The notes beneath the pieces were generated by a model. That model was not told where the DNA came from. It did no database searches and saw nothing but the letters and a program-made list of their open reading frames with translations. Shown here in pieces: positions 4,206-60,027 of a stretch of 64,000 nt of DNA. This stretch comes from Gammaproteobacteria bacterium. Lineage in GTDB: Bacteria > Pseudomonadota > Gammaproteobacteria > Ga0077536. The position numbers and the translations under genes were made by a program. Within the stretch, counting starts at the first letter, position 1; each line of letters opens with the position of its first letter. The stretch spans positions 2,688,001 through 2,752,000 of the forward strand of contig CAXXLL010000003.1 of the NCBI GenBank assembly GCA_963662545.2. Direction: 5' to 3'.

Positions 4206-4280
4206 TTTTATCCTCGGTTGTTTGTTTTAGTTTGGCGTCGAGTGTTTCGACAATTCATAAATTGGAGAAAAGGTGACAGG

Positions 4281-5620
4281 CTGAGGAATCCCCATAAAAC
4301 CCCAACGAAATACAAAGCGATAGATTGATTTGTGGGTTCGTGGAACCTGCATGGCTCGAGTTGATCTCAGTTGTTGCAAGACAATCTGTGAACGACGAGG
4401 TGAGCCATGCAGGTATTGAAATTGTTACATGAAATGAGCAGCGAAGCGCTATACGGTGTGCATTTGGGTCGTCGACTCTCGGTTTGGGCGGCGGTCGGCG
4501 GTTTACTTCGGGGCCGACGTTTGTGGCTGACGCATATCGGTCGGAGCATAGACAGTGGCACGAGCGAGAAACACGCGATTAAGCGCGTCGATCGCTTGCT
4601 GGGTAATCGTCAGCTCGGTGGTGAGCGTTTGCAGTGGTATCAATGGATAGCTCGGTTATTGGTATCGGACTGTGCGCATCCGGTGGTGTTGGTGGATTGG
4701 TCTAATCTGGATCAACGTCAAGAGCTCTATGTATTGCGGGCGGCCTTAGCGGTCGGTGGTCGAGCCATCCCCGTGTATGAAGAAGTCGAACACCATTACG
4801 CGAGTGTCAAAGCGGAGAAACGCTTTCTGAAGCGACTGAAGGCCATTCTGCCTGCGGGCTGTTGTCCGATCTTGGTCAGTGATGCAGGATTTCGGACGCC
4901 CTGGTTGAGTCTTGTGGCCTCAATGGGATGGTATTACGTGGGTCGCATCCGTCATCGTCACCTCGTGCGAGGTATGGATGAGGCGGCATGGCATTCGAAC
5001 AAAGTGCTCTACGGCCAAGCCAATGCTCGTCCGAAGTCACTGGGTCGTTTTTTGATCACGAAAAGTAATCCGCTGGACACCCATTTATTCGTTTACAAAG
5101 GTAAGAAACGCGGGCGTGTCTGCTATACGGCTTACGGCAAACCGGCGCGGGCTCGCAATACCGAGAAACCGTCGGCAGCGGCGCGTGAGCCGTGGTTATT
5201 GGCCAGCAATCTGCCGGACAACCTTCGTAGTGCGCATCGGGTAGTTGCCGTGTATCGTCGCCGCATGCAGATTGAAGAGAGCTTCCGCGACATGAAGTCG
5301 CCCCGTTACGGCTTTGCACTTAGAGAAAACATGGGACGTGATCCCGAGAGAGTGGCGAACTTACTCTTGCTGTGCGCATTGGCCACACTGGCCCAATGGT
5401 TGGTCGGCTTGGTCGGTTACCAAACAGGTTTAGTGAAAGGTTTACAGGCCAATACCGAAAGACGTAAGCCCGTCCTATCCGTGGTATTCGTTGGTGCTCG
5501 CCTCATTGCCAAGCAACTTCAAATCCGGCGCTCAACTTTATTACAGGCGCTCCGGGATCTACAGGCACGCGCCATTGTGCAACTTGAATTTTGCTAGTCG
5601 AATTTGTGGGGATCCCTCAG
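4281..5620 (+). mobile_element. IS4 family, IS10-like insertion sequence (type A, intact)
   Basis: IRs CTGAGGAATCCCCA / TGGGGATCCCTCAG; 9-bp target duplication GGTGACAGG. Confidence 0.92.
4407..5597 (+). CDS. IS4-family DDE transposase
   Basis: IKRVDRLL, VDW, DAGF, EPWLL, Y-R-QIEESFRD-K (YREK signature). Confidence 0.92.
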   Translation: MQVLKLLHEMSSEALYGVHLGRRLSVWAAVGGLLRGRRLWLTHIGRSIDSGTSEKHAIKRVDRLLGNRQLGGERLQWYQWIARLLVSDCAHPVVLVDWSNLDQRQELYVLRAALAVGGRAIPVYEEVEHHYASVKAEKRFLKRLKAILPAGCCPILVSDAGFRTPWLSLVASMGWYYVGRIRHRHLVRGMDEAAWHSNKVLYGQANARPKSLGRFLITKSNPLDTHLFVYKGKKRGRVCYTAYGKPARARNTEKPSAAAREPWLLASNLPDNLRSAHRVVAVYRRRMQIEESFRDMKSPRYGFALRENMGRDPERVANLLLLCALATLAQWLVGLVGYQTGLVKGLQANTERRKPVLSVVFVGARLIAKQLQIRRSTLLQALRDLQARAIVQLEFC

Positions 5621-5634
5621 GGTGACAGGTTTAT

Positions 5635-5895
5635 TTGAGTGAACCATATCTCCAAAGTGACCCGGTGGGGCTTGCCGGTGGTATTAATACCTATGCCTAT
5701 GCCAACAGCAACCCCTTACGTTGGATAGATTTATATGGGTTAACTGCGACTTGTCCTCTAATTCCGCCTGGTTTAGGCGATTCGATGTGGACATCCGACC
5801 GCGGTTCACGCTTCTTTCATTGTGGCTTACGAGTTTTTAGGGAGAATCGCAAACCCACACCGTGCGACCCCACCGCAGAATGTGTTTATGACTGA
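5635..5895 (+). pseudogene. Orphan RHS core end plus truncated toxin tip
   Basis: [32 protein letters not shown] (RHS PxxxxDPxG-like motif). Confidence 0.85.
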
Positions 5896-6236
5896 CCCTG
5901 TCCGGCGCTGAACTCAAGGCCATCCTCGAAGACGTCGCTGATAACCTGTTCAATCCCGACCCGTATTTTCAGCAGGGCGGTGACATGGTGCGCACCGCCG
6001 GGATCGGTTATCGCCTGCGTGCACACGCGCAAGCCGGGGAGCGCATCGAGAATCTGACTAAGCTGCCAGGCCGCGATCCGATTGAAGCGTCGCGACAATA
6101 TGTGCTCACAGCTTGGGCCTCGGTCAACGAAAATGTCGAGGGCCCGGCGGTCTACGACGTCGTCAGCGAGCATATCGAGAACCTCGATGATGACGTCCAT
6201 GTAGCGCCGAACACCGCCGTGCAGTTCGTCGTCTAA
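5892..6236 (+). pseudogene. soxB: 3' fragment of thiosulfohydrolase SoxB
   Basis: ELKAILEDVADNLFNPDPYFQQGGDMVR...WASV...PAVYDVV matches the SoxB C-terminus. Confidence 0.8.
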
Positions 6237-6422
6237 TCAGGTCGCAAAGCCCCTGAATACGGTCAGTAGCGCGCGGATCTCCTGCACGAGATCGGGAGGC
6301 AGGTCATCGGCAGCCATCTCGAACGTCAGGGCCTGCTGGTCCGCGACCTCGATCACAGCTACCTCGCCCGCGAGCCGCACGATGACGATGGCCTGGCCCA
6401 GGTCCTCGGTCGTTCGATTACC

Positions 6423-6469
6423 TCGGCAACTGCTCCTGCGCTGCTCTACCTCCTGCATCCATGCAGTCG
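6423..6469 (-). repeat. 47-bp hairpin micro-insertion (also at 14646-14692 and 22309-22355 on +)
   Basis: Absent from the equivalent site at about 14007; reverse complement of CGACTGCAKGGATGCAGGAGGTAGAGCA...TTGCCGA. Confidence 0.85.
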
Positions 6470-6826
6470 TACCGCATCGCCTTCGGCCCCCGCCAGGGAC
6501 ACAAGGCCTTCATGCTACAAACGCGCCCCGCGCAAGATGAACACACACCTACCAGCGAGCGCTTGGCCAAGGCCGCGGGCTTCTCCCTACACGCGGGCGT
6601 GGCGGCCGAACCCTGGGAGCGCAACAAACTCCAACGTCTCGCCCGTTACCTCACTCGCCCCGCGATCGCAGAGCAACGCCTCGCGCTAACTGCACAAGGC
6701 CTCGTCAGGTACGAACTCAAAACCCCTTATCGCGACGCCACCACCCACGTGTTCTTCGAGCCCCTGGACCTCATGGCCCGCCTCGCCGCACTCATCCTCA
6801 AACCGCGCGTCAATCTGATCCGATTT

Positions 6827-6898
6827 GATGGGGAACATCCCTGTTCCCCACCCTTCGGGCAACCTTCGGTTGTCCAAATTTATTCCCGATAAATTTGT
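6827..6898 (+). repeat. 72-bp multi-hairpin micro-insertion (also at 14365-14436 and 22028-22099)
   Basis: Splits the IS91 RF|HGV motif; stems GGGGAACA/TGTTCCCC, CAAC-CTTCG-GTTG and CAAATTTAT/ATAAATTTG. Confidence 0.85.
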
Positions 6899-7017
6899 CA
6901 CGGTGTCTTTGCCCCGAATAGCCCGCATCGCGCCGCCGTCACGCCCGCCCGACGCGGCCGCAAGCAATCCGATGCAAAGCCCGACAAAACACCCGCCCAA
7001 CAACGCGCCGCCATATT

Positions 7018-7245
7018 GTGTACCGACGGGCTTTATTCATACTGGTTCTGGTATGGCAGATCGCAGCGGTCGTTGCCGCGGACGAGCGTACGCTGGCCAT
7101 CCTGCTGACGAACGACGACGGCTACGATTCCGCGGGGCTAAGCACATTGCGCGACGCATTGCTCGCGGACGGTCACCGGGTCACGGTGGTCGCGCCGCTG
7201 GCGCAACAAAGCGGCAGCGGCGTGAAAGTCACCCTGGGCACGTAT
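7018..7245 (+). pseudogene. surE: 5' fragment of a secreted SurE-family nucleotidase
   Basis: Signal peptide then ILLTNDDG, VVAP and QSGSG; ends abruptly. Confidence 0.8.
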
Positions 7246-7321
7246 AAGAAAAACAAAGCCCACGTGTCGATTAATCAGTTGTGAAGCGAAGGCCTGGGAC
7301 GAAGCTGGAAGAGAGGTTGTC

Positions 7322-8050
7322 GTGGGTCAGGTGCCGGCAATAGTTCGCACGCCGAAAGCATCGGTACGGGCAGAAAAAGTCGTATTGGTGATGAGCGCCT
7401 GGTCGGTACGCTGGGCCGCAATCCGCAAGGCGGTGGCGGTCGTCAGCGGCGACATCATCATGACGCCCCCCATCCCCAATGAACTCGAACAAATGGGCTG
7501 GACGGATGGCCTCGGCGTCTCCGACGGGCGCGCCCTCGGCATTACGCTCGTGGTCGCCGGTGCCGAGACGACGACCTTCCTGCTCGCGAACCTGCTATAC
7601 AACCTCGCCGTTATGCCCGCGGAGCGGATGGCGCTGTGCCGAGACCCGGCATTGATTCCTGCATTCATAGACGAGAGCTTGCGGCACTCGGGGCCGCCGC
7701 AGCGCCTGTTCCGGATCGCCACCCGGGATGTCGAGGTCGGCGGGTGCCTAATCAAAGCCGGCGAATGGGTGGCCCTGTTCTTCGGCGCCGCAAATCATGA
7801 CGCGGACGTGTTTCCGGAGCCGGCGCGCTTCGAGATGGCCCGCGAGAACGCGAATCGCCACCTGTCGATGGGTCTCGGTATCCACCACTGCCTCGGCTTC
7901 GCCGTCGCGAAGCTTGAGGCGGGCGCGCTTATCGAAGCGGTGCTCGGGCGATTTCCGGAGCTGCGACTCGGCGAAACCCTGCCGGTCCCGCAACGGACGA
8001 GCCTGCTGACGAATAGCTTCGAGGCGCTGACGATCAACTTCGACGGCTGA
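7322..8050 (+). pseudogene. Chimera: FAD-oxidoreductase internal piece fused in frame to the C-terminal half of a cytochrome P450
   Basis: [15 protein letters not shown]...GVSDGR, then AGAETT, ESLR and [13 protein letters not shown] (heme Cys). Confidence 0.75.
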
Positions 8051-10077: not shown

Positions 10078-10517
10078 GTATTCTGAAATAGCCTGGTAGC
10101 GTTAAGCTGCTTTACGCCTTTGGAAACCCAATCCCGCGAGCGCAAATCCCATGAGGGTGAGGGTGGCGGGTTCAGGGGTGGAGAAAAGGTGACAGGCTGA
10201 GGAATCCCCATAAAACCCCAACGAAATACAAAGCGATAGATTGATTTGTGGGTTCGTGGAACCTGCATGGCTCGAGTTGATCTCAGTTGTTGCAAGACAA
10301 TCTGTGAACGACGAGGTGAGCCATGCAGGTATTGAAATTGTTACATGAAATGAGCAGCGAAGCGCTATACGGTGTGCATTTGGGTCGTCGACTCTCGGTT
10401 TGGGCGGCGGTCGGCGGTTTACTTCGGGGCCGACGTTTGTGGCTGACGCATATCGGTCGGAGCATAGACAGTGGCACGAGCGAGAAACACGCGATTAAGC
10501 GCGTCGATCGCTTGCTA

Positions 10518-12214
10518 GTGTGCATCCCTAAACGCGATGCGGTTGAAATAAAAAGGAAAATTTGTCGCTTAAGGGATCGAAACCTCCGGTGGGTCGTGAT
10601 CTAATGGAACTTCAAACCTCTGATTTTCCACACAATCATCGACACCACAGGAGGGGGAATGCGTCAGAAACGCACGGCCCAAGCGAGTATATACGAGCTG
10701 TTTGCTGACCATGACCTGGGGCGAGAGCTGCAGGGCATGTCCGAGTGGCTCGATGCTCACCCCAAGGTCCTCACGCCGGTCATGAACGATCTGTGTCGGC
10801 GGGGTTTGAAGCCCACCGGTCGACGCGGACTGTCGGCGGAGTCGGTGCTGCGCTGCGCGGTGCTCAAGCAGCACCGGCAATTGAGTTACGAGGAGCTGGC
10901 CTTTCACCTGCAGGACTCGGCGAGCTTTCAGGCCTTCGCCCGGTTGCCGGGTAATGAACGTCCGAAGAAGTCTGCCTTACAGCGGGTGGTCTCGGCGATC
11001 CAGGTATCGACGTGGGAGTCTATTCATCGCGCCCTGCTGGCGACGGCGAAAGAGACGCGCATTGAGCCGGCACAGCGTGTACGGATTGATAGCACGGTAA
11101 CGGACAGTGCCATCCACGCGCCGAGCGACAGTCATCTGCTGTGGGATGGCGTGCGTGTTGTGGTTCGTCTGCTCGCACAGGCGCGCGAGTTGCCTGGCGC
11201 GCCGGAGTTGTGCTTCGTGAACCACACTCGATTGGCGAAGAAGCGTGCGCGGGCGCTGTGGTATGCGCGTGGTGCGAAGCAACGCCAACGTCTGTATCGC
11301 GATTTGATTGGGGCGACGCGTTCAACCTTGGAAGCGGTAGCGAGGGTACGTGAGCAGCTGCTGAGCCCGGGCGTCACCGGCGTTGAACTGCCGGACTGGC
11401 TAGCGCAGGTAGCGCACTACGAAACACTTGTTCTGCAGGTGATTTCGCAAACTGAGCGGCGGGTGTTCGGCGGTGAGAAGGTCCCCGCGAGCGAGAAGTG
11501 CGTGAGCTTGTTCGAGCCGCATACCGACATCATCATAAAGGGTGCGCGCGACGTTCAGTACGGACACAAAATCAATCTGGCTTCGGGGCGCAGTGGCCTC
11601 ATCCTCGACGTGGTCATCGAGCGAGGCAATCCGGTCGATAGTCAGCGCTTCATGCCGATGCTCGAACGGCATCGAACACACTACGGGACGATGCCACGAC
11701 AGGTCGCCGCCGATGGCGGCTATGCGAGCCTCGACAATCTCCGGGCGGCGAAAGCAGAAGGCATCGAAGACGTTGCCTTCCACAAGAAGCGCGGGCTCGC
11801 GATCGCCGACATGGTCAAGAGTCAGTGGGTCTATCGACGCTTGCGCAACTTCCGCGCCGGCATCGAGGCCGGTATCTCCTGCCTGAAGCGTGCATACGGA
11901 TTGGCACGTTGCACCTGGAAGAGCCTGCCGCACTTCGAAGCCTACGTGTGGTCTTCTGTGGTCGCCTACAACCTCAGCCTGCTCGCGCGCTATCAACTCG
12001 AATAGCGACGTTCACTCGCACTAACTGACCTCCTCGATATCGTCGAACGGGCGACTTTGGGTTGCAGCGCTCTGCGGCCGGCGAACGTACTCACAATTAC
12101 GCTCGAAGAGCCCTTCGACCCCCACCGAACCGCCGCTACCGCTCCAACAACCTACTTTCAACACCTCGATTTCTCCGTGCCCATCGAAGAAAATGCCTGT
12201 TTATGGACGGACAC
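10518..12214 (+). mobile_element. ISNCY-type insertion sequence copy A (1697 bp)
   Basis: IRs GTGTGCATCCCTAAAC / GTTTATGGACGGACAC; 6-bp duplication TTGCTA. Confidence 0.9.
10659..12005 (+). CDS. ISNCY/IS5-like DDE transposase
   Basis: LSYEELAFHL, RIDSTV, ADGGY, FRAGIEAGIS-LKR. Confidence 0.9.
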   Translation: MRQKRTAQASIYELFADHDLGRELQGMSEWLDAHPKVLTPVMNDLCRRGLKPTGRRGLSAESVLRCAVLKQHRQLSYEELAFHLQDSASFQAFARLPGNERPKKSALQRVVSAIQVSTWESIHRALLATAKETRIEPAQRVRIDSTVTDSAIHAPSDSHLLWDGVRVVVRLLAQARELPGAPELCFVNHTRLAKKRARALWYARGAKQRQRLYRDLIGATRSTLEAVARVREQLLSPGVTGVELPDWLAQVAHYETLVLQVISQTERRVFGGEKVPASEKCVSLFEPHTDIIIKGARDVQYGHKINLASGRSGLILDVVIERGNPVDSQRFMPMLERHRTHYGTMPRQVAADGGYASLDNLRAAKAEGIEDVAFHKKRGLAIADMVKSQWVYRRLRNFRAGIEAGISCLKRAYGLARCTWKSLPHFEAYVWSSVVAYNLSLLARYQLE

Positions 12215-13253
12215 TTGCTAGGTAATCGTCAGCTCGGTGGTGAGCGTTTGCAGTGGTATCAATGGATAGCTCGGTTATTGGTATCGGACTGTGCGCATCC
12301 GGTGGTGTTGGTGGATTGGTCTAATCTGGATCAACGTCAAGAGCTCTATGTATTGCGGGCGGCCTTAGCGGTCGGTGGTCGAGCCATCCCCGTGTATGAA
12401 GAAGTCGAACACCATTACGCGAGTGTCAAAGCGGAGAAACGCTTTCTGAAGCGACTGAAGGCCATTCTGCCTGCGGGCTGTTGTCCGATCTTGGTCAGTG
12501 ATGCAGGATTTCGGACGCCCTGGTTGAGTCTTGTGGCCTCAATGGGATGGTATTACGTGGGTCGCATCCGTCATCGTCACCTCGTGCGAGGTATGGATGA
12601 GGCGGCATGGCATTCGAACAAAGTGCTCTACGGCCAAGCCAATGCTCGTCCGAAGTCACTGGGTCGTTTTTTGATCACGAAAAGTAATCCGCTGGACACC
12701 CATTTATTCGTTTACAAAGGTAAGAAACGCGGGCGTGTCTGCTATACGGCTTACGGCAAACCGGCGCGGGCTCGCAATACCGAGAAACCGTCGGCAGCGG
12801 CGCGTGAGCCGTGGTTATTGGCCAGCAATCTGCCGGACAACCTTCGTAGTGCGCATCGGGTAGTTGCCGTGTATCGTCGCCGCATGCAGATTGAAGAGAG
12901 CTTCCGCGACATGAAGTCGCCCCGTTACGGCTTTGCACTTAGAGAAAACATGGGACGTGATCCCGAGAGAGTGGCGAACTTACTCTTGCTGTGCGCATTG
13001 GCCACACTGGCCCAATGGTTGGTCGGCTTGGTCGGTTACCAAACAGGTTTAGTGAAAGGTTTACAGGCCAATACCGAAAGACGTAAACCCGTCCTATCAG
13101 TGGTGTTCGTTGGTGCGCGCCTCATTGCCAAGCAACTTCAAATCCGGCGCTCAACTTTATTACAGGCGCTCCGGGATCTACAGGCACGCGCCATTGTGCA
13201 ACTTGAATTTTGCTAGTCGAATTTGTGGGGATCCCTCAGGGTGACAGGTTTAT

Positions 13254-13855: not shown

Positions 13856-13923
13856 TCAGGTCGCAAAGCCCCTGAATACGGTCGGTAGCGCGCGGATCTC
13901 CTGCACGAGATCGGGAGGCAGGT

Positions 13924-15049
13924 CATCGGCGGCCATCTCGAACGTCAGGGCCCCTCGAGCCGCACGATGACGATGGCCTGGCCCAGGTCCTCGGTAGTTC
14001 GATTACCTACCGCATCGCCTTCGGCCCCCGCCAGGGACACAAGGCCTTCATGCTACAAACGCGCCCCGCGCAAGATGAACACACACCTACCAGCGAGCGC
14101 TTGGCCAAGGCCGCGGGCTTCTCCCTACACGCGGGCGTGGCGGCCGAACCCTGGGAGCGCAACAAACTCCAACGTCTCGCCCGTTACCTCACTCGCCCCG
14201 CGATCGCAGAGCAACGCCTCGCGCTAACTGCACAAGGCCTCGTCAGGTACGAACTCAAAACCCCTTATCGCGACGGCACCACCCACGTGTTCTTCGAGCC
14301 CCTGGACCTCATGGCCCGCCTCGCCGCACTCATCCTCAAACCGCGCGTCAATCTGATCCGATTTGATGGGGAACATCCCTGTTCCCCACCCTTCGGGCAA
14401 CCTTCGGTTGTCCAAATTTATTCCCGATAAATTTGTCACGGTGTCTTTGCCCCGAATAGCCCGCATCGCGCCGCCGTCACGCCCGCCCGACGCGGCCGCA
14501 AGCAATCCGATGCAAAGCCCGACAAAACACCCGCCCAACAACGCGCCACCATGAGCCTTAAGCACAAAGACTCAAACGTGTGTTCAATATCGATATCGAG
14601 ACCTGTGAGGCCTGCGGGGGGCATGTCAAGATCATCGCCTGCATCCGACTGCAGGGATGCAGGAGGTAGAGCAATGCAGGAGCAATTGCCGAGAAGACCC
14701 CGACCTTATCCAACGCATCCTCGACCATCTCGACCGTCATACCGAACCGACCCGAGCTGTCAACGCGCATCCCGCCCGCGCGCCGCCGCAACTGCCCCTG
14801 CTCGGACTCAACGATTGAGCCCAACAGCCACACGCAGCACGGATGCCAGGCCTCGCCAGCGACGGTCTCCGCGACACTCGACCGCAAGGCTAATCCGTCG
14901 ACTTCACGCCCCGCTCAGCCGTTCAGTGACACGCGATAACCCGATTTCACACGCCTGACCCCTACGTCTGCCCCACTTCCGCCTTCGTCAACCGCGCTCC
15001 AACCCGCGCGTCAGCGCATGAATGCGGGCGTTGTACTTCCTATTCTCCC
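13924..15049 (+). mobile_element. IS91/ISCR remnant 2 with intact oriIS-type end
   Basis: Dead transposase 3' half (KIIACI-EDP...RILDHL); ends about 230 bp after the stop in GGGCGTTGTACTTCCTATTCTCCC. Confidence 0.88.
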
Positions 15050-15200
15050 GCAGATGTACTTTTTCGAAGATCGTGCGTTGGTGTTCTGGAGTCTTGTCCT
15101 GCCCGGCTCGGATCGTGAGGTCGACGGCGTCGACGTGATGACCTTTACGGATGACGAACGTATCGCAGTAAAGGATGCCTACTGCAAGGCCTTTAGCTAG
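15050..15200 (+). pseudogene. C-terminal fragment of a SnoaL-like protein directly after the oriIS
   Basis: DRALVFW...VDGVDVMTF-D-RIAVKDAY-K; no start. Confidence 0.55.
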
Positions 15201-16896: not shown

Positions 16897-16910
16897 TTGC
16901 TAGGCGCCTG

Positions 16911-16985
16911 TTCGCCGACAAGTCGGCTCCTACGGTGGCTATCGCTCAGAACGGAGACACCTGTAGGAGCCGGCTTGCCGGCGAA
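16911..16985. repeat. Inverted GTAG-family REP doublet (REPIN-like)
   Basis: TTCGCCGACAAGTCGGCTCCTAC ... GTAGGAGCCGGCTTGCCGGCGAA. Confidence 0.85.
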
Positions 16986-43728: not shown

Positions 43729-43734
43729 GGTGAC

Positions 43735-46033: not shown

Positions 46034-46040
46034 GGGTACC

Positions 46041-46133: not shown

Positions 46134-46515
46134 CGCGCGCCGCGCGCAGGCCGTTATTGATGTCGAAGCTGCCATCGAGATGGGGGTCGTTGATCAAGCC
46201 TTTCCAGCCAATGGTCGTGCGCGGCTTTTCGAAATAGGCCCGCATGACGATACAGAGGTCCGCTTTGAGATCGTCGAGCGCACCGTGCAGGTGGTCGGCA
46301 TATTCGAGCGCCGCTTGCGTATCGTGTATAGAGCACGGCCCGGCCACGACGAGCAACCGGTCGTCCTCACCGCGGATGATCGCTTCCGTCGCACTGCGCG
46401 CATTGGCAATGAGCTTGGCAGCCTGTTCGGAAACAGGGATCTCCTCCATCAATATTGCCGGCGAAATCAGCGGTCGGTAACCGCTGATACGCGCATCATC
46501 GATAACGTGGAACAT
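46134..46515 (-). pseudogene. 5' fragment of class-I DAHP synthase (AroF/G/H type)
   Basis: DDRLLVVAGPCSIHD, MRAYFEKPRTTIGWKGLINDP; cut after about 125 aa. Confidence 0.88.
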
Positions 46516-49023: not shown

Positions 49024-49482
49024 GGCTCATTAGTGTTGCCGGTGTGGCTGAAGTTCCCCACCGAGGCAATCGGCCGTCGTCTCATCCGCGGCACCGGTCG
49101 GTGGGTGCAAACGCGTGCCGAGCCCCCCGTCGATGCCCGCGTCGGCACGCGGCTCGACGACCGTGTCAGCAACGGAGCAGACCACGGTCAGGCGCAGGGT
49201 TCGCGGGTCGTGCCACGCCCGGCCCGCTGGCGTGCACGCCCGGATTCACTCGAGGCCTTCCTTTTTCGTGTTGAGACTTGATGGACGGGCTTTGTTTACC
49301 CTATAACTCCGCCGACCCGGGCTTTGCCCCGGTCCCGCTTCGGGATGGATCCGGCATGGATCGGTCTCGACAGACAGCGGCAACAGAGGATCGGCTTTGG
49401 GGGCGAACCAAGAACCGATCCGAACGCATCTAACGCTCCCTGAAGTTAGCCGTCCGACGCAGGCGCCCAAAGGATGGTCATC

Positions 49483-50181: not shown

Positions 50182-50681
50182 TTCCAGACGGCTGATTGCC
50201 TATTCGTCATACCGGATTTTTTTTGCTGACAGCGTGTCCATTCCATGGCTCGCTTCCGCGGCCCGCTCCTGCCGTCATGCCGGGCCGGGGTGCCGAGGAA
50301 AGCCGGGCGTGCGGTGCGCGCCGCCCGCCTGAGGGCATGGATCGGCCGCGACCTAGAATGTCGGGGTGCGCCGGCGTGGTCGCCTGATCCCCCAAGCGCG
50401 GCCCCCCGGTCCCCGGGAAGCGCGGACAGCCCGGACGATTTTCGACCACGAAGCAATGCGTGCAGAGGTCGGGGCGCCACGCCGATCACGCAGCTGCGGC
50501 GAAGCGGCATCCGGCACCGGAAAACGTAACGGTGCCGCTCGTCGAATTGGTCTCTCGAATCTAAGGTGGTGTGCTCAGACGATCGGGTAATTTCTTATTC
50601 GACCTGGTACCAAAAACGTTATATGCTCGCGGCACGACCCTGAGGTCGGCATCCAAAAAGACGCAGCTGGGAGATCGGACC

Positions 50682-52550
50682 ATGAGCATTCGGCACCTGT
50701 TACCCCTGTTTGGGATCCTCTTCATGGCGACGGCGGTGTCAGCCGACCCCAACAAAAGATCGGGGAAACCGGACGCCGCCAAGCTGTACGCCGACCGCTG
50801 CGCCGAATGCCACACGCGCGCCGCGTTTTCGCCGGACCTAAACGCATTGTCGAACCTGACCGCGGAAGAGGCGCACAAGGAGCTGTGGTGGGGCGTCATG
50901 CAGCAGTTCGCCAATGGCCTGGACGATCAGGAGCGATGGGAGCTGGCCAAGTACGTCACCAGTCACAAACCGGAGAGCGAAAAGGACGCGCGCGGCCACG
51001 GCGTCAAAATGTGCAAGGACAAGAAGCCGCTGGTGGCCGATGCCAAGCATGACTGGCCCGGACTCTCGAAGGACAACCGCTTCCACCGGCATGCGACCAA
51101 TTCGAAGTTCACTGCTGCGGGCGTGAAGAACCTCAAGCTCAAGTGGGCCGTGGGGTTTCCGCAGGTCCATGCGTTCAATGGTGGCGGGCACCCGGTCTCC
51201 GTCGTCGGCGACCGCGTGTTCGTGGGTAATCTCAATCACTGGGTCTACTCGTTCGATGTGGACTCCGGATGCGCGCACTGGGCGTTCCAGGCCGAATGGC
51301 GGATTCGATCGAACGTCGCCGTGGGCGACGGTATCGCCGTATTCGGCGATGTCGGGGCGAACGTCTACGGAGTGAACGCGGAAACAGGCCAGCTGCTCTG
51401 GCGCGACAAAGCGGATTGGACGCCGACCGCCCGCGTTTCGGGTAACGTGACGGTGCACGACGGCGTCGTCTACGTGCCCATATCCAACCTGCAGGAAGTG
51501 CTCAACATGGGCGGCAGGACCTTGGAATTCCCGTGCTGTACGGCTCGCGGCGCAATCGTCGCCTATGACCTGCATACCGGTGAGCGCAAGTGGAAGACCT
51601 TTACCATCGACCAGGAGCCCGGGTATATAGGCACGACGAAAAGCGGCACGAATCGCTACGGCCCCTCGGGCGTCATGGTGTTCTCGGCGATCACGGTCGA
51701 CGACAAGCGCGGCCTCTTGTACGTGCCGACCGCGAACCAGATGACCGAGCCGGTCGTTCGCGAATCCGACTCCGTGATCGCGTTCGACATGAAAACGGGC
51801 GCCAAGCGTTGGGTGAAATCACTGGCGCCCGAGCAGATGGGCGGCCAGGACATCTACCACCTGGGCTGCGAAGCGTGGGTCGATGAAGAGCGGAAAACCT
51901 GCTCGCCCTTAAACCCGAAGGGACAGGGTGACCGGGATATCGTGTCGCCCGTGGTGCTGGTGGAACGAGCGGACGGTAAGGAGGTCCTCATGGTCGGATC
52001 CAAGGACGGCATGCTTTACGCGTTGGATCCGGACGCCAAAGGAAAAATCCTGTGGCAGACCCGCGTCGGCAAAGGCGGGGAAGTCGGCGGCATCCAGTGG
52101 GGCTTTGCGAGCGATGGCAAGAATGCTTACGTCCCCGTCAACGATATGGATGCGGACATGAAGGCGGACGGCTCGTTCACGGCGGTCGATCTCGTGACCG
52201 GAAAATCCGTATGGCGCGTCGAGAAAATGACGCCCGTCTGTGAGGGTAAGCCGACGCCGCCGTGCAGCAATGCCTTCGGCTTGCCCAGTACCGTGGCGAA
52301 CGACGTCGCTTTCACGGGCAACGCCGACGGCGTGCTGCGCGCCTACAATACTGCGACCGGGAAGCTGGTGTGGAGCTTCGATACGGCGCGCGACTATGAA
52401 ACCGTCAACGGTCACAAGGGCTACGGCGGGAGTCTGGGCTTCGGCGGGCCGGTCATCGTGAAGAATCAGTTATTCGTGTCATCCGGCCTGGACTATGCGA
52501 ATTTCGGGATGGCTGGGAACGTCCTGCTCATGTTCGAGCTCGACGAATAG
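50682..52550 (+). CDS. Cytochrome c-PQQ quinohemoprotein, copy 3
   Basis: CAECH; core identical to copy 1; GGAG RBS. Confidence 0.88.
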   Translation: MSIRHLLPLFGILFMATAVSADPNKRSGKPDAAKLYADRCAECHTRAAFSPDLNALSNLTAEEAHKELWWGVMQQFANGLDDQERWELAKYVTSHKPESEKDARGHGVKMCKDKKPLVADAKHDWPGLSKDNRFHRHATNSKFTAAGVKNLKLKWAVGFPQVHAFNGGGHPVSVVGDRVFVGNLNHWVYSFDVDSGCAHWAFQAEWRIRSNVAVGDGIAVFGDVGANVYGVNAETGQLLWRDKADWTPTARVSGNVTVHDGVVYVPISNLQEVLNMGGRTLEFPCCTARGAIVAYDLHTGERKWKTFTIDQEPGYIGTTKSGTNRYGPSGVMVFSAITVDDKRGLLYVPTANQMTEPVVRESDSVIAFDMKTGAKRWVKSLAPEQMGGQDIYHLGCEAWVDEERKTCSPLNPKGQGDRDIVSPVVLVERADGKEVLMVGSKDGMLYALDPDAKGKILWQTRVGKGGEVGGIQWGFASDGKNAYVPVNDMDADMKADGSFTAVDLVTGKSVWRVEKMTPVCEGKPTPPCSNAFGLPSTVANDVAFTGNADGVLRAYNTATGKLVWSFDTARDYETVNGHKGYGGSLGFGGPVIVKNQLFVSSGLDYANFGMAGNVLLMFELDE

Positions 52551-52556
52551 GGTGAC

Positions 52557-52776
52557 GTAACGGCGATTCGATCGGAGGACGTCATACTGAGCGTCGCGGA
52601 CGCGCTGCAATACATCTCGTCTTACCCCGAATACATCGCCAACCTCGCGCGCGCCTACGAGCTCTGAAGAGTCGCAGGCCGCGCGCGATGCGATGGCGCA
52701 AATCCTGATCAACGCTCGCATGTGCGCGGAAGGGCACGGTCCCGTCAGCCAGGACACGCGCATCGTCACGGTCTTC
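52557..52776 (+). pseudogene. fumA: Decayed fumarate hydratase 5' fragment, copy 3
   Basis: Same lesions as 43735-43960. Confidence 0.8.
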
Positions 52777-53339
52777 TGCCAACAACTTCGATGCAGTCGG
52801 CGGCCTTAGTGTCGCCGCAACCGCGGTGCCGTTGCCGGCGAGCGCGCTGTTGCTCGCTCCTGCGCCCGGCTTCCTCGGCTTTCCCACGCGGCGTGCGGCA
52901 GCCGCCGCCTCGCCTGCGTGACAACCGGTGTGCTGTGCCTTGCCCCGCAAGGCCTCCTCTGCTTGCCGGGCTTCGGCTCGGCGTTTTTTTAGCCGCGGTA
53001 GCAGAGGGCGCATTTCGACATTCATCTCATGGGGGAAATGAACACGCTTGAATCGATTCGCACCGCCGGCATCCTCGCTGCGGCGCTCGCCGTGAGCGGT
53101 TGCGCAACCATGCTCGGCCCGGAGATATCGATTGCCAAACAAGCCAGTCTGGGGCGGTCCCCGAGACGCTGGCGAATGCCGGGTGGTGCCGGCAGTTAGC
53201 TGCAAATTCGTCGAGTACAATCGGGGCTGCCAGGCGTTTGTAGGTTAGGTAGTGTTGTTGTAACGATCGATATTCGCCGGTTTGCACGGCGGGACGTGTT
53301 AGGCAGGACTGTTTCTCAACTAAGTGTGACAGGGGTAGA

Positions 53340-55709
53340 TTGATGACTGGGATTGGCAAATCTGTACGGCGTAAGGAAGACCGGCGCTTTATCACGGGCG
53401 CGGGAACATACACGAGCAATGTCGACTATCCCGACCAGGCGTATCTCTATATCGTGCGTGCGCAAAATGCACATGCCCGGATACGTAACATCGACACATC
53501 GGCGGCACGGGCCGCCGAAGGTGTTGTCGCCGTCTACACTGCTGCGGATCTCCATGCCGGCGGGATAAGAGATATGCAGCCGGGCTGGATAATCTACAAC
53601 CCTGATGGGTCTCCAATGCATGAAGCTCCACGTGAAGCGTTGGCGGTTGAGCGCATCCGCTATGTCGGGCAGCCGGTAGCGGCTGTGATCGCTGAATCCA
53701 GTCTTCTTGCGAAAGACGCAGCCGAACTAATCGAGCCCGATCTTGAGGAATTACCTGCCGTTGTCAGCATAGCCGACGCGAACAGTGCGAATGCCCCGAA
53801 GATTTGGGACCACATCTCTGCTAACCAATGCTTCGAGTGGGTCATCGGCGATAGTGAAACGGTAGATGAGGTATTCGCGTCGGCAGCTCAAACTGTGGAA
53901 GCTGACATCGTTCAAAATCGCCTCGTGCCCAATGCGCTCGAACCGCGCGCTGTCGTCGCCACGCATGATGCAAACAACGATGAATTTACACTTCATGTGG
54001 CGCACCAGAATCCACATCTTTTACGGACTTGGACGTGCGCACATACGTTGCCGGTCCCGGAATCCAGGCTGCGGGTCATTTCGGCCGACGTTGGCGGTGG
54101 TTTTGGCTCCAAGATTTTTCAGTACTCAGAGGACCTGGTGGCTTTGTTTGCAGCTAAGGCTTTGGGTCGACCGGTGAAATGGGTGGCCGAACGTAGCGAA
54201 TCGTTCGTTTCCGACGCCCACGCCCGCGATCATGTAACTCATGCAAGCTTGGCGCTGGATTCCGATGGAAAGTTTTTGGCGCTGCGTGTCGATACTGATG
54301 CCAATTTGGGTGCTGCAATATCGAATTACGGTGCCGCCATTCCGACCGTTTTCTACGCCACCATGCTGTCGGGTGTTTACAAGATCCCGGCTATCGCAGT
54401 AAGAGTGCGCGGCATAATGACGAATACGGTGCCGACGGACGCATACCGTGGGGCCGGACGCCCGGAAGCAACGTATGTGCTCGAACGTCTGGTCGATCTC
54501 GCTGCGGAGGCGACCGGTATCGATCGCATCGAGATTAGGCGACGAAATTTTATTCCGCTGTCGGCCTTCCCATACCAGTCGCCCTTGGGCCTCGTTTATA
54601 CCGAAGGCGCGTACGACCAATGCGTCGACGGCGCATTGGAAAACGCAGACATGAAAGGGTACGACGCACGCAAGGCGGCATCACAGGCCGCCGGCAAGCT
54701 GCGTGGATTAGGCGTAATCGTGTATACCGAGCAAGCTGGCGCGGCGCCTTCCCAGGCGGCGATCGCTTTCGGCGCGGGACACGCATTTTTTGAGGTTGCG
54801 ACGATCCGGGTAAATCCGGATGGATCGGTGCGCGTCCTTACCGGCGCACACAGCCACGGACAGAGTCACGAGACGACGTTTGCCCAAATCGTTTCGGATC
54901 AGCTTGGCCTGCCTCTGGACGAGATCGAAGTAATCCACGGTGATACCAATCAACTGCCGTTTGGCATAGGAACATTCGCATCACGCTCAATCAGTGCCGG
55001 CGGCAGCGCGGTGCTCTTAGGCACCGGGAAAATCATCGCCAAGGGCAAGAAGATCGCGGCACATATACTCGAGGGTGAGGCCGAGGACATCGAATTCATC
55101 GACGGCTTTTTCAAACTCAAGGATTCTGACCGTATCTTGTCATTCAAAGAGATTGCGCGCGAAGCGTATGTTCCGGGGAACTATCCGTTGGACCAGCTCG
55201 AGCCCGGGCTTGAAGAAACCACCTTCTTCGACCCACCGAACTTCACATTTCCTGCCGGCTGTCACATTTGCGAGGTCGAAATCGAACCGCAGACCGGCGA
55301 GACAAGGATCGATCGTTACACCGTCTGCGATGATTTCGGCGTGGTGGTCAATCCAATGGTCGTACACGGTCAGATCCATGGCGGCCTGGCGCAGGGCATT
55401 GGTCAGGCGCTTCTCGAAAATGCCGTATACGATGCTGATTCAGGCCAACTGTTGAGTGCGTCCTTCCTCGATTACGCTATGCCACGTGCGGATGATCTAC
55501 CCGCATTCGAAGTTTCGGAATTAGATACGTTCTCGATATCGAATCCACTAGGCGCTAAGGGTGCCGGTGAGGCGGGGACCATTGGTGCACCGATTACAGT
55601 CATGAACGCCATTTTCGATGCGCTCAAACCCGTCGGTGTCACCGACCTTTCAATGCCGGCAACACCCACGAAGATCTGGTCGGCTATTCAAGCGGCAAAC
55701 ACTGCCTAG
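53340..55709 (+). CDS. coxL: Molybdopterin hydroxylase large subunit (form-II CoxL / xanthine dehydrogenase family)
   Basis: VGGGFGSK, AYRGAGRPEA, HGQ-HET, GQIHGG-AQGIG, KGAGE. Confidence 0.9.
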   Translation: MMTGIGKSVRRKEDRRFITGAGTYTSNVDYPDQAYLYIVRAQNAHARIRNIDTSAARAAEGVVAVYTAADLHAGGIRDMQPGWIIYNPDGSPMHEAPREALAVERIRYVGQPVAAVIAESSLLAKDAAELIEPDLEELPAVVSIADANSANAPKIWDHISANQCFEWVIGDSETVDEVFASAAQTVEADIVQNRLVPNALEPRAVVATHDANNDEFTLHVAHQNPHLLRTWTCAHTLPVPESRLRVISADVGGGFGSKIFQYSEDLVALFAAKALGRPVKWVAERSESFVSDAHARDHVTHASLALDSDGKFLALRVDTDANLGAAISNYGAAIPTVFYATMLSGVYKIPAIAVRVRGIMTNTVPTDAYRGAGRPEATYVLERLVDLAAEATGIDRIEIRRRNFIPLSAFPYQSPLGLVYTEGAYDQCVDGALENADMKGYDARKAASQAAGKLRGLGVIVYTEQAGAAPSQAAIAFGAGHAFFEVATIRVNPDGSVRVLTGAHSHGQSHETTFAQIVSDQLGLPLDEIEVIHGDTNQLPFGIGTFASRSISAGGSAVLLGTGKIIAKGKKIAAHILEGEAEDIEFIDGFFKLKDSDRILSFKEIAREAYVPGNYPLDQLEPGLEETTFFDPPNFTFPAGCHICEVEIEPQTGETRIDRYTVCDDFGVVVNPMVVHGQIHGGLAQGIGQALLENAVYDADSGQLLSASFLDYAMPRADDLPAFEVSELDTFSISNPLGAKGAGEAGTIGAPITVMNAIFDALKPVGVTDLSMPATPTKIWSAIQAANTA

Positions 55710-55870
55710 TGTGCTGTCCCGTAATAAACTTCGATAAGTCGCGCAGGACTCGTGCCGCGATGCAAGGCGCGAGGAGGCGTCGTATCGGGAATACGGCAAC
55801 GACGAGCAACGCCGCAGCGTGGTGCGAGGACCAGCGAATTATGAAGGTTTATTACGGGACAGCACACTAG
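55706..55870. mobile_element. MITE of about 165 bp with 24-bp perfect terminal inverted repeats
   Basis: CTAGTGTGCTGTCCCGTAATAAAC ... GTTTATTACGGGACAGCACACTAG. Confidence 0.88.
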
Positions 55871-55904: not shown

Positions 55905-56110
55905 TGCGGATAGGAAGCATAACGCCCATCATCATCGCAATCGTCCCCCGTTGTGGGCGGCATCTCGGGCCGAGGAGCGAGTCCCGAGGTCGGATTGAGC
56001 CGTAGCATCTGGGCGACGAGTCACTCGTCGAGGTCGTCCAGTTAGGCATCTCCTTCTCAGCGGGGCAAATCATCGTGTGAGGCCGAGCGCCACCGACAGG
56101 ACCCGGTTCC
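55905..56110 (-). mobile_element. Solo ISCR-type 3' end and oriIS
   Basis: Minus strand reads GGGCGTTATGCTTCCTATCCGC, preceded by GGCGCTCGGCC about 160 bp upstream. Confidence 0.65.
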
Positions 56111-58344: not shown

Positions 58345-58699
58345 TTCAGTCTCCGTCTTGTTCCAGCGTGAACATGACGATCTGCTTCAGCGTCGCGTTC
58401 ATGCGTCGCGCGAAATCGTTGACGCGCGGGTCAATGCGTATACGCGAATAATATTAGTGCCTACTAACATTTTTGGTGCCAGATCGAGTCAAATATTACC
58501 TGCGTATAAGCAGTATAAACAGGCTTTTCGTCCAGCAGCATCCCGTCGTCACGTTTGTCGGTGGCCGGTCTGACCCGCGAACGCCCTCAAACCGGTATTC
58601 CGGCGCCCGAATCTACCCCGGCCGCGGGTTCGCCTGTGCACGGTTCGCCGTGGCACCGGCCCACAGGCCAGCCGCCACCGTGGCCGCGCCGCTGGTGTC

Positions 58700-58860
58700 G
58701 CAGCGTGAAAACCTTGCGGCCCTGTTGCGGTCCGACCGCGATGCGGTACGTGATTGACGAACCCAGGAGCTCATCCATCGGCCCAGCCTCGAGGCCATCG
58801 CCGGCCAGATAGCTGTTCTGCGCGTCCCGCGTAAGCCACCCCTGCGGTTCGAGATCGCAG
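58700..58860 (-). mobile_element. Remnant of a second, diverged IS91/ISCR transposase
   Basis: LEPQGWLTRDAQNSYL...LLGSSITYRIAVGPQQGRKVFTL. Confidence 0.8.
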
Positions 58861-59207
58861 ACATCCTGCATGCCAATCCGCGATGTCAGCATGTCCGCCG
58901 CTCGGACGAACTCCGCTGTCAGATCGAGACCGCTTACGCGACAGCCGAATTCCGCGGCCAGCGTGCGTGCAGGGCCGCTGATATCGCATCCGAGGTCGAG
59001 CACATGCATGTCCGCCCGCATACCGGCAAAAGCGGCGAGGTCACGGGTCGAGGCAATACCGCCGCCATGAAATTCGTCGAATGGCGTCCGGTCGCGGCGT
59101 TCGAGTCGTTCCAAGTCACGCCCCGCCACCCGCAGGCTGGCGAGAATCCGGGCGCAACTATCGGCGCTGCCGTAATGCTGCTCGACGGCGTGCTCAGGCG
59201 ACTCCAT
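58861..59207 (-). pseudogene. 5' part of a class-I SAM methyltransferase fused to the IS91 remnant
   Basis: DEFH-GG, VLDLGC-I-GPAR-LA, V-GLDLT. Confidence 0.8.
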
Positions 59208-59228
59208 CAGCCACCCGCCAGGCGTGGT

Positions 59229-59918
59229 TCAACGAAGGTAGTCATGCAGAACCTGGCCGTGTTCGAGCGCGCACGAGCTTTCGAAGAAGTAGCCCCCCTC
59301 AATGGATTTAATCGGAATGTCGGCCACGCGATCCGATGGCGATTCACCGAAGACGAGGGTGGCGGGGCCGCAATGCACATCTCCGATCTGCATGTTGGTC
59401 AGTGTGGTCGTGGTCAGTTGATCGACGTCAGGCGGGGCGCCGAGTGCGACGTTGGGGATGAACTTGCGCGTAACCCATTCGGTTGTGCCGCCCAGGTCTT
59501 CCGCAGGCATCATTGATTGCATGCGCATGGACGCGTCGATCACCGTGAACCCGCCGCGCTCAACCGTCGCGCGCACGACATCATCGGTGGTGTCGAGCGT
59601 CAGGCGGCCAAGTTTCTTGGGATACCCCCAGATTTCGCGCCCAGCGCCCATCGCGACGTCGCTATCCAGTATCATATAAATACTGAAGTTGACGAAGCGT
59701 CGATCGTAGGTTGCATGAGTGGAAATGTGCGCCTCGTAATAGCGGCCGACGCCAGAGCACAGGAAATCCACGACCTGGGCGAACATCAGGCTATCCTTGT
59801 TTGGTGTTAGCGGGGGCGGAACCAGTTGGCGCAGAACCTTGGGGTCTGTTTTGAACGCCACAGTGATCTGACTCATTTCGCGATAATGGAACGGCGGTTT
59901 GCCGTAAAGTTCGGACAA
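59229..59918 (-). CDS. Acetoacetate decarboxylase family protein (start uncertain)
   Basis: Y-E, GREIWGYPKK (Schiff-base Lys). Confidence 0.85.
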   Translation of the reverse strand: MSELYGKPPFHYREMSQITVAFKTDPKVLRQLVPPPLTPNKDSLMFAQVVDFLCSGVGRYYEAHISTHATYDRRFVNFSIYMILDSDVAMGAGREIWGYPKKLGRLTLDTTDDVVRATVERGGFTVIDASMRMQSMMPAEDLGGTTEWVTRKFIPNVALGAPPDVDQLTTTTLTNMQIGDVHCGPATLVFGESPSDRVADIPIKSIEGGYFFESSCALEHGQVLHDYLR

Positions 59919-59937
59919 GCTGGATTCTTGGGGACCC

Positions 59938-59960
59938 GGTGTTTATGCTTCCTATACTCC
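59938..59960 (+). mobile_element. Isolated oriIS-like motif at a segment junction
   Basis: GGTGTTTATGCTTCCTATACTCC. Confidence 0.6.
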
Positions 59961-60027
59961 GCGCAGCAGATTGTCGATTTGGCAAAAAATGCCGGTTATG
60001 CTTATCCCTCCTAAAGGAGGGACCGCG

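Follow-up and report, generated by a model that had tools for sequence, protein, structure and literature searches.

Dead ISCR ends of several lineages cluster in an insertion sequence-saturated catabolic zone of a marine gammaproteobacterium

Results

Features of the locus

The window, by which we mean the whole 64-kb stretch of DNA analyzed here, forms part of an insertion sequence (IS)-saturated accessory zone of at least 85 kb that carries catabolic genes and in which at least nine (about ten) dead ISCR ends from about seven lineages have accumulated (Table 1). The genome has a heavy load of DDE elements, including ISNCY-type (more than 50 copies), IS630-type (about 20) and IS4-type (about 10) sequences; these bound several gene scraps, and much of the mosaic is bounded by such ordinary elements. 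A 640-nt interval separates one IS4-family copy (4268-5636) from ISCR remnant A to its right, and the ISNCY-type copy at 10514-12221 splits a second IS4 copy. The reading frame of remnant B is shifted by a 47-nt two-hairpin insert, itself a separate small mobile element. Among the genes beside ISCR ends, the molybdenum hydroxylase scrap has a frame that is open from the oriIS junction onward, Rieske, PQQ-dehydrogenase and RidA genes point away from oriIS e, a TylF-type methyltransferase gene comes after vestige f, and an EthD-domain gene begins 12 nt past stub j. The transposase-less unit at 58502-59918 retains transposase residues 217-286 (58698-58919) together with a gene of the acetoacetate decarboxylase family that is missing 3 start codons. 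It is duplicated at window-equivalent positions 65420-66836 (pair i/k), with 1 mismatch in 1417 nt.

Table 1. Mobile-element features and adjoining gene scrap in the window
Feature	Position	Strand	Description
IS4-family IS	4268-5636	+	396-aa DDE transposase at 4407-5597; about 10 genome copies
ISCR remnant A	6276-7014	+	Covers transposase residues about 222-429; lacks oriIS; duplicated at 13895-14552
oriIS stub a	7240-7331	-	Motif 7240-7261 plus 70 nt of element interior
ISNCY-type IS	10514-12221	+	448-aa transposase; >50 genome copies; also at 15196-16904 and 38273-39981
ISCR remnant B	13895-15047	+	Transposase residues about 222-497; stop 14816-14818; oriIS b at 15026-15047
Two-hairpin insert, 47 nt	14646-14692	+	Also at 22309-22355 (+) and about 6422-6469 (-)
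oriIS c	20251-20272	-	Partner at window-equivalent 78710-78731
ISCR remnant d	21509-22710	+	oriIS at 22689-22710
Molybdenum hydroxylase gene scrap, C-terminal	22725-23204	+	MoCoBD_2 profile positions 149-283
oriIS e	32019-32375	-	Motif 32019-32040 plus about 330 nt of ISCR 3' end
ISCR transposase fragment	34375-34751	+	Residues about 212-327; between IS4-like and IS110-like transposase genes
oriIS vestige f, 9 nt	37225-37233	+	Heads segment paralogous to 49306 onward
Decayed oriIS g	49287-49308	+	14.3 bits; heads 79%-identical paralogue of 37234-38104
oriIS h	55906-55927	-	26.1 bits; no transposase remnant behind
Transposase-less unit	58502-59918	-	oriIS i at 58502-58523; 203 nt 3' region
oriIS stub j, 39 nt	59921-59959	+	Motif 59938-59959; 94.9% identical to ISCR copy end at C2:723317

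A recurrent motif is concentrated in the window

An initial annotation of this DNA had singled out a recurrent 22-base motif, and its five clear sites are present at the positions given, in elements b, d, e, h and j. With up to 3 mismatches, the 22-mer was matched three times in the window as compared to 0 times in 100 shuffles. Up to 5 mismatches gave 12 matches in the whole genome (5.58 Mb), five of them inside the 64-kb window, and two others lie at most 21 kb to its right. A genome scan with a weight matrix, suggested at that stage and here trained solely on seven motif sites outside the window, returned 24 sites of at least 20 bits; six fall in the window, where a uniform spread of matrix matches over the genome would place 0.28. 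Three minus-strand sites had been overlooked, namely those of a (23.8 bits), c (15.8 bits) and i (15.4 bits), and each has a homologous partner elsewhere. The partner of c comes immediately after an ISCR fragment, while stub a is 95.8% identical to C3:2487580-2487674, with homology stopping 3-4 nt beyond the motif. Two degenerate versions had also been listed. The one at 49287 (g) is plausible, as the 79%-identical paralogous segment begins in its last bases, but that at 19621, which scores below 10 bits, is unsupported.

Sequence comparison identifies the motif as ISCR oriIS

The motif is identified by sequence as the oriIS terminus of elements of the ISCR type, which belong to the IS91 family and encode an HUH/Y2 transposase; the nearest clade is ISCR2/ISVsa3. 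This agrees with the assignment first proposed, and a near-identical sequence, GGGCGTTTATTCTTCCTATACG, stands at the matching position of an ISVsa3 copy, 212 nt past the transposase stop. The corresponding gap is 207 nt in the window and 224 nt in an intact copy elsewhere in the genome. Two motif copies had been placed about 230 bp behind dead transposases; in remnant B the motif indeed begins 207 nt after the stop, and this also applies to the copy at 22689. The claim that a third site follows homologous 3' DNA holds weakly: the site at 32039 and the 15026 copy have 46 nt in common (85%), aligned in the same register, and there is also a C-terminal protein match (E=0.05).

A profile search matched transposase fragments in three window ORFs to Y2_Tnp (PF04986; E about 1e-19), and these window fragments are about 70% identical in DNA to ISVsa3/ISCR2. 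The NCBIfam model NF052416 ('ISCR element clade Ia') was matched by 21509-22093 (E=2.8e-36) and by the intact genome copy (E=3.5e-209), both scoring under the model's strict cut-off of 925 bits. A genome-wide census yielded 42 strong oriIS motif sites. Nineteen have a same-strand ISCR transposase remnant upstream, 61-612 nt off and mostly 193-267 nt, and in 14 of these 19 the remnant reaches the transposase C-terminus. No such motif was found downstream of the genome's IS91-type transposases (about 384-406 aa).

The motif marks a physical element end

The motifs are true element ends, as copies cease to be homologous within a few bases of where the motif ends. Of 34 pairwise alignments that run in register through the motif, 29 lose homology between -5 and +3 nt from the motif end; the other five were two larger segmental duplications and three alignments ending at +6, +17 and +17. 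It likewise stops at the motif end in the pairs b/d, i/k, l/m and j/C2:723317, and a 90-nt stub in a same-genus genome, 98% identical, stops at 22710. oriIS h shares 83 nt (78%) with C3:889117. The earlier placement of the motif at homology breakpoints is thereby supported, and the suggestion that several ISCR lineages are present is matched by about seven sequence lineages among the window ends. An assembly chimera had been raised as an objection. The checked junctions g, h and j are not artefacts, being spanned by contigs from sequencing runs: g and j by those of three isolate runs and one metagenome run, and h by those of two isolate runs. All of the isolate runs may be of the same strain as the assembly and would therefore not be independent support.

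Truncation is one-sided

That no intact IS91 transposase is present is true for the window, but the genome does hold one intact ISCR transposase (C3:2498999-2500501), about 187 kb off and 74% identical to ISVsa3 over 499 aligned residues. The window remnants are about 50-62% identical to it in protein, and its own oriIS, GTGGTTTATGCTATCTATACAC, differs from the window motifs. All window remnants begin at residue 212 or later of 500, without the HFH region near residue 190 in the catalytic N-terminal part. Adjoining the oriIS ends, a 3' stretch of between 9 nt and about 1.2 kb is kept, and the catalytic 5' part is lost. The same holds across the genome, where the 42 oriIS sites divide into 2 with a full- or near-full-length transposase, 18 with a 5'-truncated one and 22 orphans with none, which may include false positives; loci that retain an N-terminal part without oriIS number only five. 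In this genome, partial profile matches give 12- to 14-fold coverage of the C-terminal bins and 2- to 3-fold coverage of the N-terminal bins, and the corresponding coverage is 10 versus 3 in the complete genome of another genus. By our reading of repeat maps, the inner boundaries of seven of nine window remnants lie off any DDE IS end.

Proposed gene capture and movement in trans

The initial annotation had interpreted the region as a Helitron-like library in which non-autonomous ori units, moved in trans, deposited captured DNA. While the ISCR identity of the ends, the breakpoints and the several lineages stand, a trans-moved family and rolling-circle gene capture are not demonstrated. Near-identical units occur in two copies only (b/d, i/k and l/m), which speaks against both a multi-copy ori family repeatedly moved in trans and a capture library. 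As for the intervening genes, only one or two of about five gene scraps adjoin oriIS, and the rest adjoin DDE insertion sequences or ordinary repeats; in the IS91 model, moreover, DNA past oriIS is target-side and not captured (PMC13181058, in its available portion). No duplicated segment with oriIS at both ends was found, and the 37234/49306 pair has oriIS at one end only. No empty site, circle or polymorphic ISCR insertion was seen; the Logan contigs examined cannot show rare forms. The contrast drawn between metabolic and resistance genes is not new either, ISCR/IS91 elements with catabolic genes appearing in published work as far as it was accessible.

The 1417-bp i/k duplication, which ends exactly at oriIS, fits rolling-circle copying, short of proof. 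In the i copy, 76 nt beyond oriIS are shared with a third locus at 95% identity, so that more than one step must have led to the pair, whose near-identity could stem from gene conversion. The b/d pair (21700-22712 versus 14037-15049, 99.7% identical) starts mid-gene, where copy d runs on as another lineage, which points to recombination and not transposition.

Discussion

We consider it probable that the window holds oriIS ends of ISCRs that were truncated from the far side and then cut up by DDE insertion sequences and recombination. ISCRs with carried DNA would have entered by rolling-circle transposition starting at oriIS, and many copies would have been truncated from the terIS side, whether because copying ended early on their arrival or because of a subsequent deletion. 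In a last step, the pieces would have been cut up and duplicated by homologous recombination and DDE insertion sequences. The neighbouring genes may have arrived with the ISCRs, and the truncation may reflect aborted rolling-circle copying. Alternatively, the ISCRs could be old and inert, and DDE insertion sequences could, together with gene conversion and homologous recombination, have produced both the mosaic and the recent duplications. The stop of homology at oriIS would follow on that reading as well, because any two ISCR-derived sequences must diverge there. DDE elements of active appearance (99-100% identity) saturate the genome, a number of gene scraps and repeat boundaries coincide with such elements, the b/d copies are recombinant inside the gene, and the oriIS-flank junction of i predates the i/k near-identity (95% to the third locus versus 99.9% for i/k). 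We nonetheless regard purely passive debris as rather unlikely, as it leaves unexplained the excess of ori-side over ter-side loci (40 versus 5, or 18 versus 5 with detectable transposase), the same bias in another genus, and the seven of nine inner boundaries away from IS ends.

It is doubtful that the ori stubs are working non-autonomous units, with an intact ISCR2-like transposase repeatedly moving adjacent catabolic DNA and with DNA between two co-oriented oriIS ends acting as a cassette. An intact ISCR transposase does exist in the genome, and the 1417-bp unit at 58502-59918 has been duplicated although it lacks a usable transposase, ending to the base at oriIS with unrelated DNA beyond. 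Mobilization of mini-IS91 by transposase in trans and one-ended transposition are experimental for IS91 (PMC13181058, available portion), and gene capture by a two-oriIS 'sandwich' has been proposed for ISCR28 according to a citing publication. Against this, identical ori units come in pairs only and not in multiple copies, the divergence of the remnants from the intact transposase is accompanied by a different oriIS, and neither a duplicated segment with two oriIS ends nor, in Logan contigs blind to rare forms, a circle junction was seen. A more speculative possibility, to which we assign a low probability, is that ISCR copying from oriIS often stops early and yields dead-on-arrival, 5'-truncated copies in a LINE-like manner, with the stubs still used in trans by the intact transposase as start or stop sites and the zone serving as a slow catabolic gene-shuffling platform. 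If this were true, the pattern of truncation from one side would provide natural evidence for the ISCR rolling-circle mechanism, which the publications consulted do not present as experimentally shown. That the motif is instead a regulatory or repetitive extragenic sequence, such as a promoter or protein-binding box, is highly improbable. The first gene outside the motif does read away from it in 6-7 of 10 window sites, and the partly available literature describes outward-directed promoters in the oriIS region of ISCR1; a simple scan around two stubs found no sigma-70-like promoter. The fixed distance of the motif from ISCR transposase C-termini genome-wide, and its same place in ISVsa3, contradict this reading.

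The window is a dense example of a known element type, not a new system. Helitrons combine an HUH rolling-circle transposase with gene fragments nearby and many non-autonomous copies, but no two-ended non-autonomous family with internal gene fragments exists here. ISCR2/ISVsa3 shares with the window the transposase clade, a near-identical oriIS about 210 nt past the stop, and genes that adjoin the oriIS side. Unlike it, every copy in the window lacks its 5' part or consists of ori sequence only; the copies derive from about seven diverged lineages and lie in a marine bacterium's chromosome or chromid, beside genes for catabolism and not for resistance. In complex class 1 integrons, ISCR1 similarly has, in the descriptions accessible in part, its variable region on the oriIS side, read in the transposase direction; the window lacks an integron context, and outward promoters were not detected by the simple scan. 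IS91/IS1294 transpose with separate ori and ter ends and without duplicating the target, have a transposase that acts in trans on mini-elements, and resemble the window elements in having one constant and one variable end, but the IS91 target tetranucleotide CTTG/GTTC, which adjoins oriIS there, was found next to oriIS in 0 of 12 flanks examined here (PMC13181058, available portion).

A further comparison is offered by cIS91sdpA of Sphingobium herbicidovorans MH, with a 17-bp oriIS 167 bp downstream of the gene, and ISCR8, with multiple copies on environmental plasmids, both as described in partly available sources. There, too, ISCR/IS91 copies, some partial, lie among genes for catabolism and insertion sequences of other kinds. 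The same material describes the observation of a circular intermediate in that system. The density of orphan ends and the diversity of lineages appear higher in the window. The ISCR28 'sandwich', as described in the citing publication, likewise combines an ISCR remnant with a further oriIS that precedes a gene, but lacks a counterpart here in the form of a duplicated two-oriIS segment.

ISCR termini, incomplete copies and an association with catabolic genes were all previously known. Most work on ISCRs has concerned clinical bacteria, in which they carry antibiotic resistance, and their movement has been deduced rather than shown; published work available in part states that there was no experimental demonstration of ISCR transposition as of 2018. 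The genome provides a large natural sample from a marine environmental bacterium: it holds one intact transposase and 42 candidate ends, and the genes beside them are catabolic. That 5'-truncated remnants anchored by oriIS are so strongly in excess is a signature of ISCR self-copying that can be tested. Closely related isolates are present in public runs and would permit a search for polymorphic insertions.

Identity and distribution of the recurrent motif

The 22-nt motif that recurs across the window is identified as the oriIS end of ISCR elements, a reading that comes from direct comparison with a copy of ISVsa3 (ISCR2) rather than from a published consensus. ISVsa3, present on thousands of plasmids, has ∼70% DNA identity to window positions 13900-15060. 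The transposase stop of one plasmid copy lies at 3102 and GGGCGTTTATTCTTCCTATACG begins 212 nt later, and the corresponding frame stop in the window, at 14816-14818, is followed 207 nt later by GGGCGTTGTACTTCCTATTCTC. Across the genome, an ISCR transposase remnant precedes 19 of the 42 strong sites on the same strand, at a distance that is mostly 193-267 nt, and in 14 of the 19 it extends to the C-terminus. It is this distance from ISCR transposase 3' ends, seen in ISVsa3, in the window and across the genome, that identifies the motif as an ISCR oriIS. The initial annotation had named the motif as such and was right to do so. Three ORFs in the window match only the C-terminal part of PF04986 (Y2 transposase), and they hit the NCBIfam ISCR clade Ia model as well (Table). 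A literature search with a motif fragment yielded only unrelated papers among the matches listed.

Features in and beside the window (positions above 64,000 continue to the right on the same contig)
Feature	Position	Strand	Remark
ISCR remnant A	6276-7014
47-nt insert	∼6422-6469	-	site differs from other two inserts
Y2 transposase ORF	6461-6892
Motif site	7240-7261	-	matrix scan
Insertion sequence	10514-12221
ISCR remnant B	13895-15047		with site b
Y2 transposase ORF	14050-14430
47-nt insert	14646-14692	+
Motif site b	15026	+	clear site
Insertion sequence	15196-16904
Motif site	20251-20272	-	matrix scan
ISCR remnant d	21509-22710
Y2 transposase ORF	21509-22093
47-nt insert	22309-22355	+
Motif site	22689	+	clear site
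Motif site	32019-32039	-	clear site
Insertion sequence	38273-39981
Hydroxylase gene derivative	39979-40606		1.8-kb internal deletion
Insertion sequence	40602-41755
PQQ/cytochrome-c segments	41797-43958, 44103-46145, 50622-52780
Motif site g	49287-49308		degenerate site
Molybdenum hydroxylase gene	53305-55708
165-bp repeat	55706-55870
Motif site h	55906-55927	-	clear site
Transposase-less unit	58502-59918
Motif site i	58502-58523	-	matrix scan; end of unit
Motif site j	59938-59959	+	clear site
Duplicate of unit	65420-66836		with site k

The five clear sites were confirmed at the positions first reported and are not chance occurrences: the 22-mer with up to three mismatches has three sites in the window and none in 100 shuffles. 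With up to five mismatches, the 5.58-Mb genome contains 12 matches, five inside the window and two more just to its right. To avoid circularity, a weight matrix was built from seven sites that all lie outside the window, including one from a plasmid ISVsa3 copy and one from the intact ISCR of this genome. At 20 bits or more, 24 genome matches were obtained, with six in the window against 0.28 expected. Three window sites absent from the initial annotation were added by the scan. Of the two degenerate sites proposed earlier, site g scored 14.3 bits, and the other, at 19621, was dropped at below 10 bits. Targeting of oriIS next to oriIS was rejected as a general behavior: of 42 strong sites, one (C2:449550) has another motif core in the 120 nt outside it, versus 2 of 2000 random segments. 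There, the full motif (C2:449550-449571) runs straight into 17 nt that form another copy without the initial five bases, the sole tandem among the 42.

Sequence divergence at the motif

The motif marks the end of the element, the position at which copies cease to be alike. Positions 14037-15049 and 21700-22712 share 99.7% identity and diverge 2 nt past the motif. The transposase-less unit and its duplicate have a single mismatch over 1417 nt, and their divergence begins precisely at the motif, as it does in a pair at 70748 and 84439. The stub at 59921-59959 (39 nt), an oriIS with a short piece of element interior, aligns with the terminus of an ISCR copy located on the other large contig, the alignment stopping at the motif end; a same-genus genome carries a 90-nt stub of 98% identity that ends at base 22710. 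Across all 42 sites, 34 alignments cross the motif in register; measured from the motif end, 29 of them stop at -5 to +3 nt. Of the other five, two lie in larger duplications, and three stop at +6, +17, and +17.

Stubs have no fixed internal start, their starts being scattered at -9, -14, -17, -25, -55, -70, -73, and -98/-100 nt; a CCTGACCC box at two of these starts is anecdotal. Retention of stubs as promoters was also rejected, a crude scan finding no sigma-70-like site at 59700-60100 or 31900-32400.

Junctions reported at the motif are spanned by assembled contigs of sequencing runs, namely those at site g and at 59918-59959 by three isolate runs and one sponge-metagenome run, and that at site h by two isolate runs. 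These three junctions are real, with the proviso that the isolates and the sequenced strain may be one and the same. The runs used were those with more than a small share of the sequence. Such contigs cannot reveal rare circles, and places without contig cover were not counted as evidence.

One-sided truncation of transposase copies

In every transposase copy of the window, everything upstream of residue 212 (of 500) is missing, and with it the HFH region near residue 190; some copies are stubs of 9, 39, or 92 nt. By their upstream sequences, the window remnants represent about seven lineages. The genome encodes one full-length ISCR transposase (C3:2498999-2500501), ∼187 kb from the window, with 74% identity to ISVsa3 and only ∼50-62% to the window remnants; several IS91-type genes of ∼384-406 residues have no such motif behind them.

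By tblastn, two of the 42 oriIS sites follow a full- or near-full-length transposase, 18 a 5'-truncated one, and 22 none, and an N-terminal part is kept without a downstream oriIS at only five loci. In this genome, partial matches cover the N-terminal end of the ISCR profile 2-3 times and its C-terminal end 12-14 times; coverage climbs from 3 to 10 in a complete genome of another genus and from 7 to 20 in pooled draft relatives, where draft contig ends add noise. Detection bias is unlikely, since it is the N-terminal part that shows the higher conservation when aligned with ISVsa3. As we read the repeat maps, seven of nine window remnants have an inner boundary that lies off any DDE insertion sequence end. 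ISCR-clade fragments are common in the bacterial family, with matches in 10 of 18 same-family genomes and 30 matches, four of them full-length, in one complete genome; in every group, G000, G004, and other relatives included, partial matches favor the C-terminal region, on the side of oriIS.

Evidence for movement and alternative explanations

The best case for movement is the 1417-bp unit, which comprises an oriIS, 203 nt of 3' region, 74 transposase codons, and a neighboring gene. The same internal deletion is present in both copies, indicating that the unit already lacked a transposase when it was duplicated. One end falls exactly at oriIS and the other is arbitrary, 9 nt inside the gene start. 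Such a combination of ends is characteristic of one-ended rolling-circle copying by a transposase that acts in trans, a process proven for IS91. At a third locus, the 76 nt beyond the oriIS of the window copy recur with 95% identity, which points to a history of several steps. Gene conversion between older copies could lie behind the near-identity of the pair; another highly similar pair, remnants B and d, is recombinant inside the transposase gene. Near-identical ori units occur only in pairs, not in larger families.

The one-sided truncation is likewise what copying that starts at oriIS and frequently stops early would leave, and later deletions could leave the same pattern. The trans-driven gene-capture platform proposed in the initial annotation is a possible model. 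The window represents ISCR biology of a known kind: ISCR1 typically has genes on its oriIS side, IS91/ISCR copies lie among catabolic genes in Sphingobium, with a circle observed there, ISCR8 occurs in multiple copies on environmental plasmids, and remnant oriIS 'sandwiches' are proposed for ISCR28. The unusual feature is that a single chromosome region contains so many and such diverse orphan ends, together with a clear excess of ori-anchored remnants.

The surrounding mosaic

Catabolic genes in the region include a dimethylformamidase-like gene, aminotransferases, an amidohydrolase, four PQQ dehydrogenases, molybdenum hydroxylase subunits, methylamine-dehydrogenase-like genes, an acetoacetate-decarboxylase-family gene, and an EthD gene. 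Gene scraps derive from P450, MoCoBD_2, DAHP synthase, and the hydroxylase gene (a deletion derivative); only one or two of ∼5 abut an oriIS, and the others abut insertion sequences or ordinary repeats.

Insertion sequences are massively expanded genome-wide, with near-identical copies numbering >50 for a 1.7-kb ISNCY-type element, ∼20 for a 1.15-kb IS630 type, and ∼10 for an IS4 type; IS3, IS110, and a second IS4 likewise occur in the region. The hydroxylase derivative lies between ISNCY-type and IS630 elements, and its matching joint is present in contigs of all four runs. The paralogous PQQ/cytochrome-c dehydrogenase segments (97% and 81% identity) recur on the other large contig with 95-97% identity, and their boundaries lie off oriIS motifs. 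The 165-bp repeat between the hydroxylase gene and site h recurs with 94-100% identity at ∼8 other places, one beside an IS630 copy, and could represent a miniature element or the end of an insertion sequence.

Among 30 relatives, no syntenic counterpart to 16905-34400 was found; matches are mostly gene-level at 64-85%, the exceptions being short matches of 94-98% (the 90-nt stub, a 47-nt element, and one 59-nt match in G001). Searches with 1-25000 and 41800-64000 found no close plasmid relative: the former had only insertion-sequence-level matches of 60-80% among the matches listed, and the latter none. Six records at 95-99% were returned for 1-25000, and in later searches six such Pseudoalteromonas records corresponded to the 47-nt element. 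Rfam gave no match in the window at gathering thresholds.

A 47-nt two-hairpin element

Transposase remnants in the window are interrupted by a 47-nt two-hairpin insert, twice at one site and once at a different site in opposite orientation. Its pattern is CGACTGCA-N-GGATGCAGGAGGTAGAGCAA-Y-GCAGGAGCA-R-TTGCCGA, and the Y and R positions covary, keeping the second hairpin. The site filled in remnant A is empty in remnant B (13990-14010), the insertion being precise and without target duplication. The genome holds 13 full-length copies, five inside ISCR transposase remnants, and left-half-only matches at further sites. At least 106 stretches of other genomes carry the exact pattern; most are from Gammaproteobacteria, and some have it as a head-to-tail 47-nt tandem. 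Specificity for ISCR genes was rejected, only 2 of 115 instances elsewhere lying in or near one, as was a closing stem formed by the flanks, which reaches at least 6 bp in 6 of 91 instances versus 0.9% of mismatched flank pairs and is not general. The element has no Rfam family, and a 19-mer of it is in no searchable paper; it may be an undescribed miniature mobile element. Several copies adjoin a ∼135-nt intergenic repeat (for example, C2:1874390-1874524) that is present in at least 20 copies at 87-94% identity.
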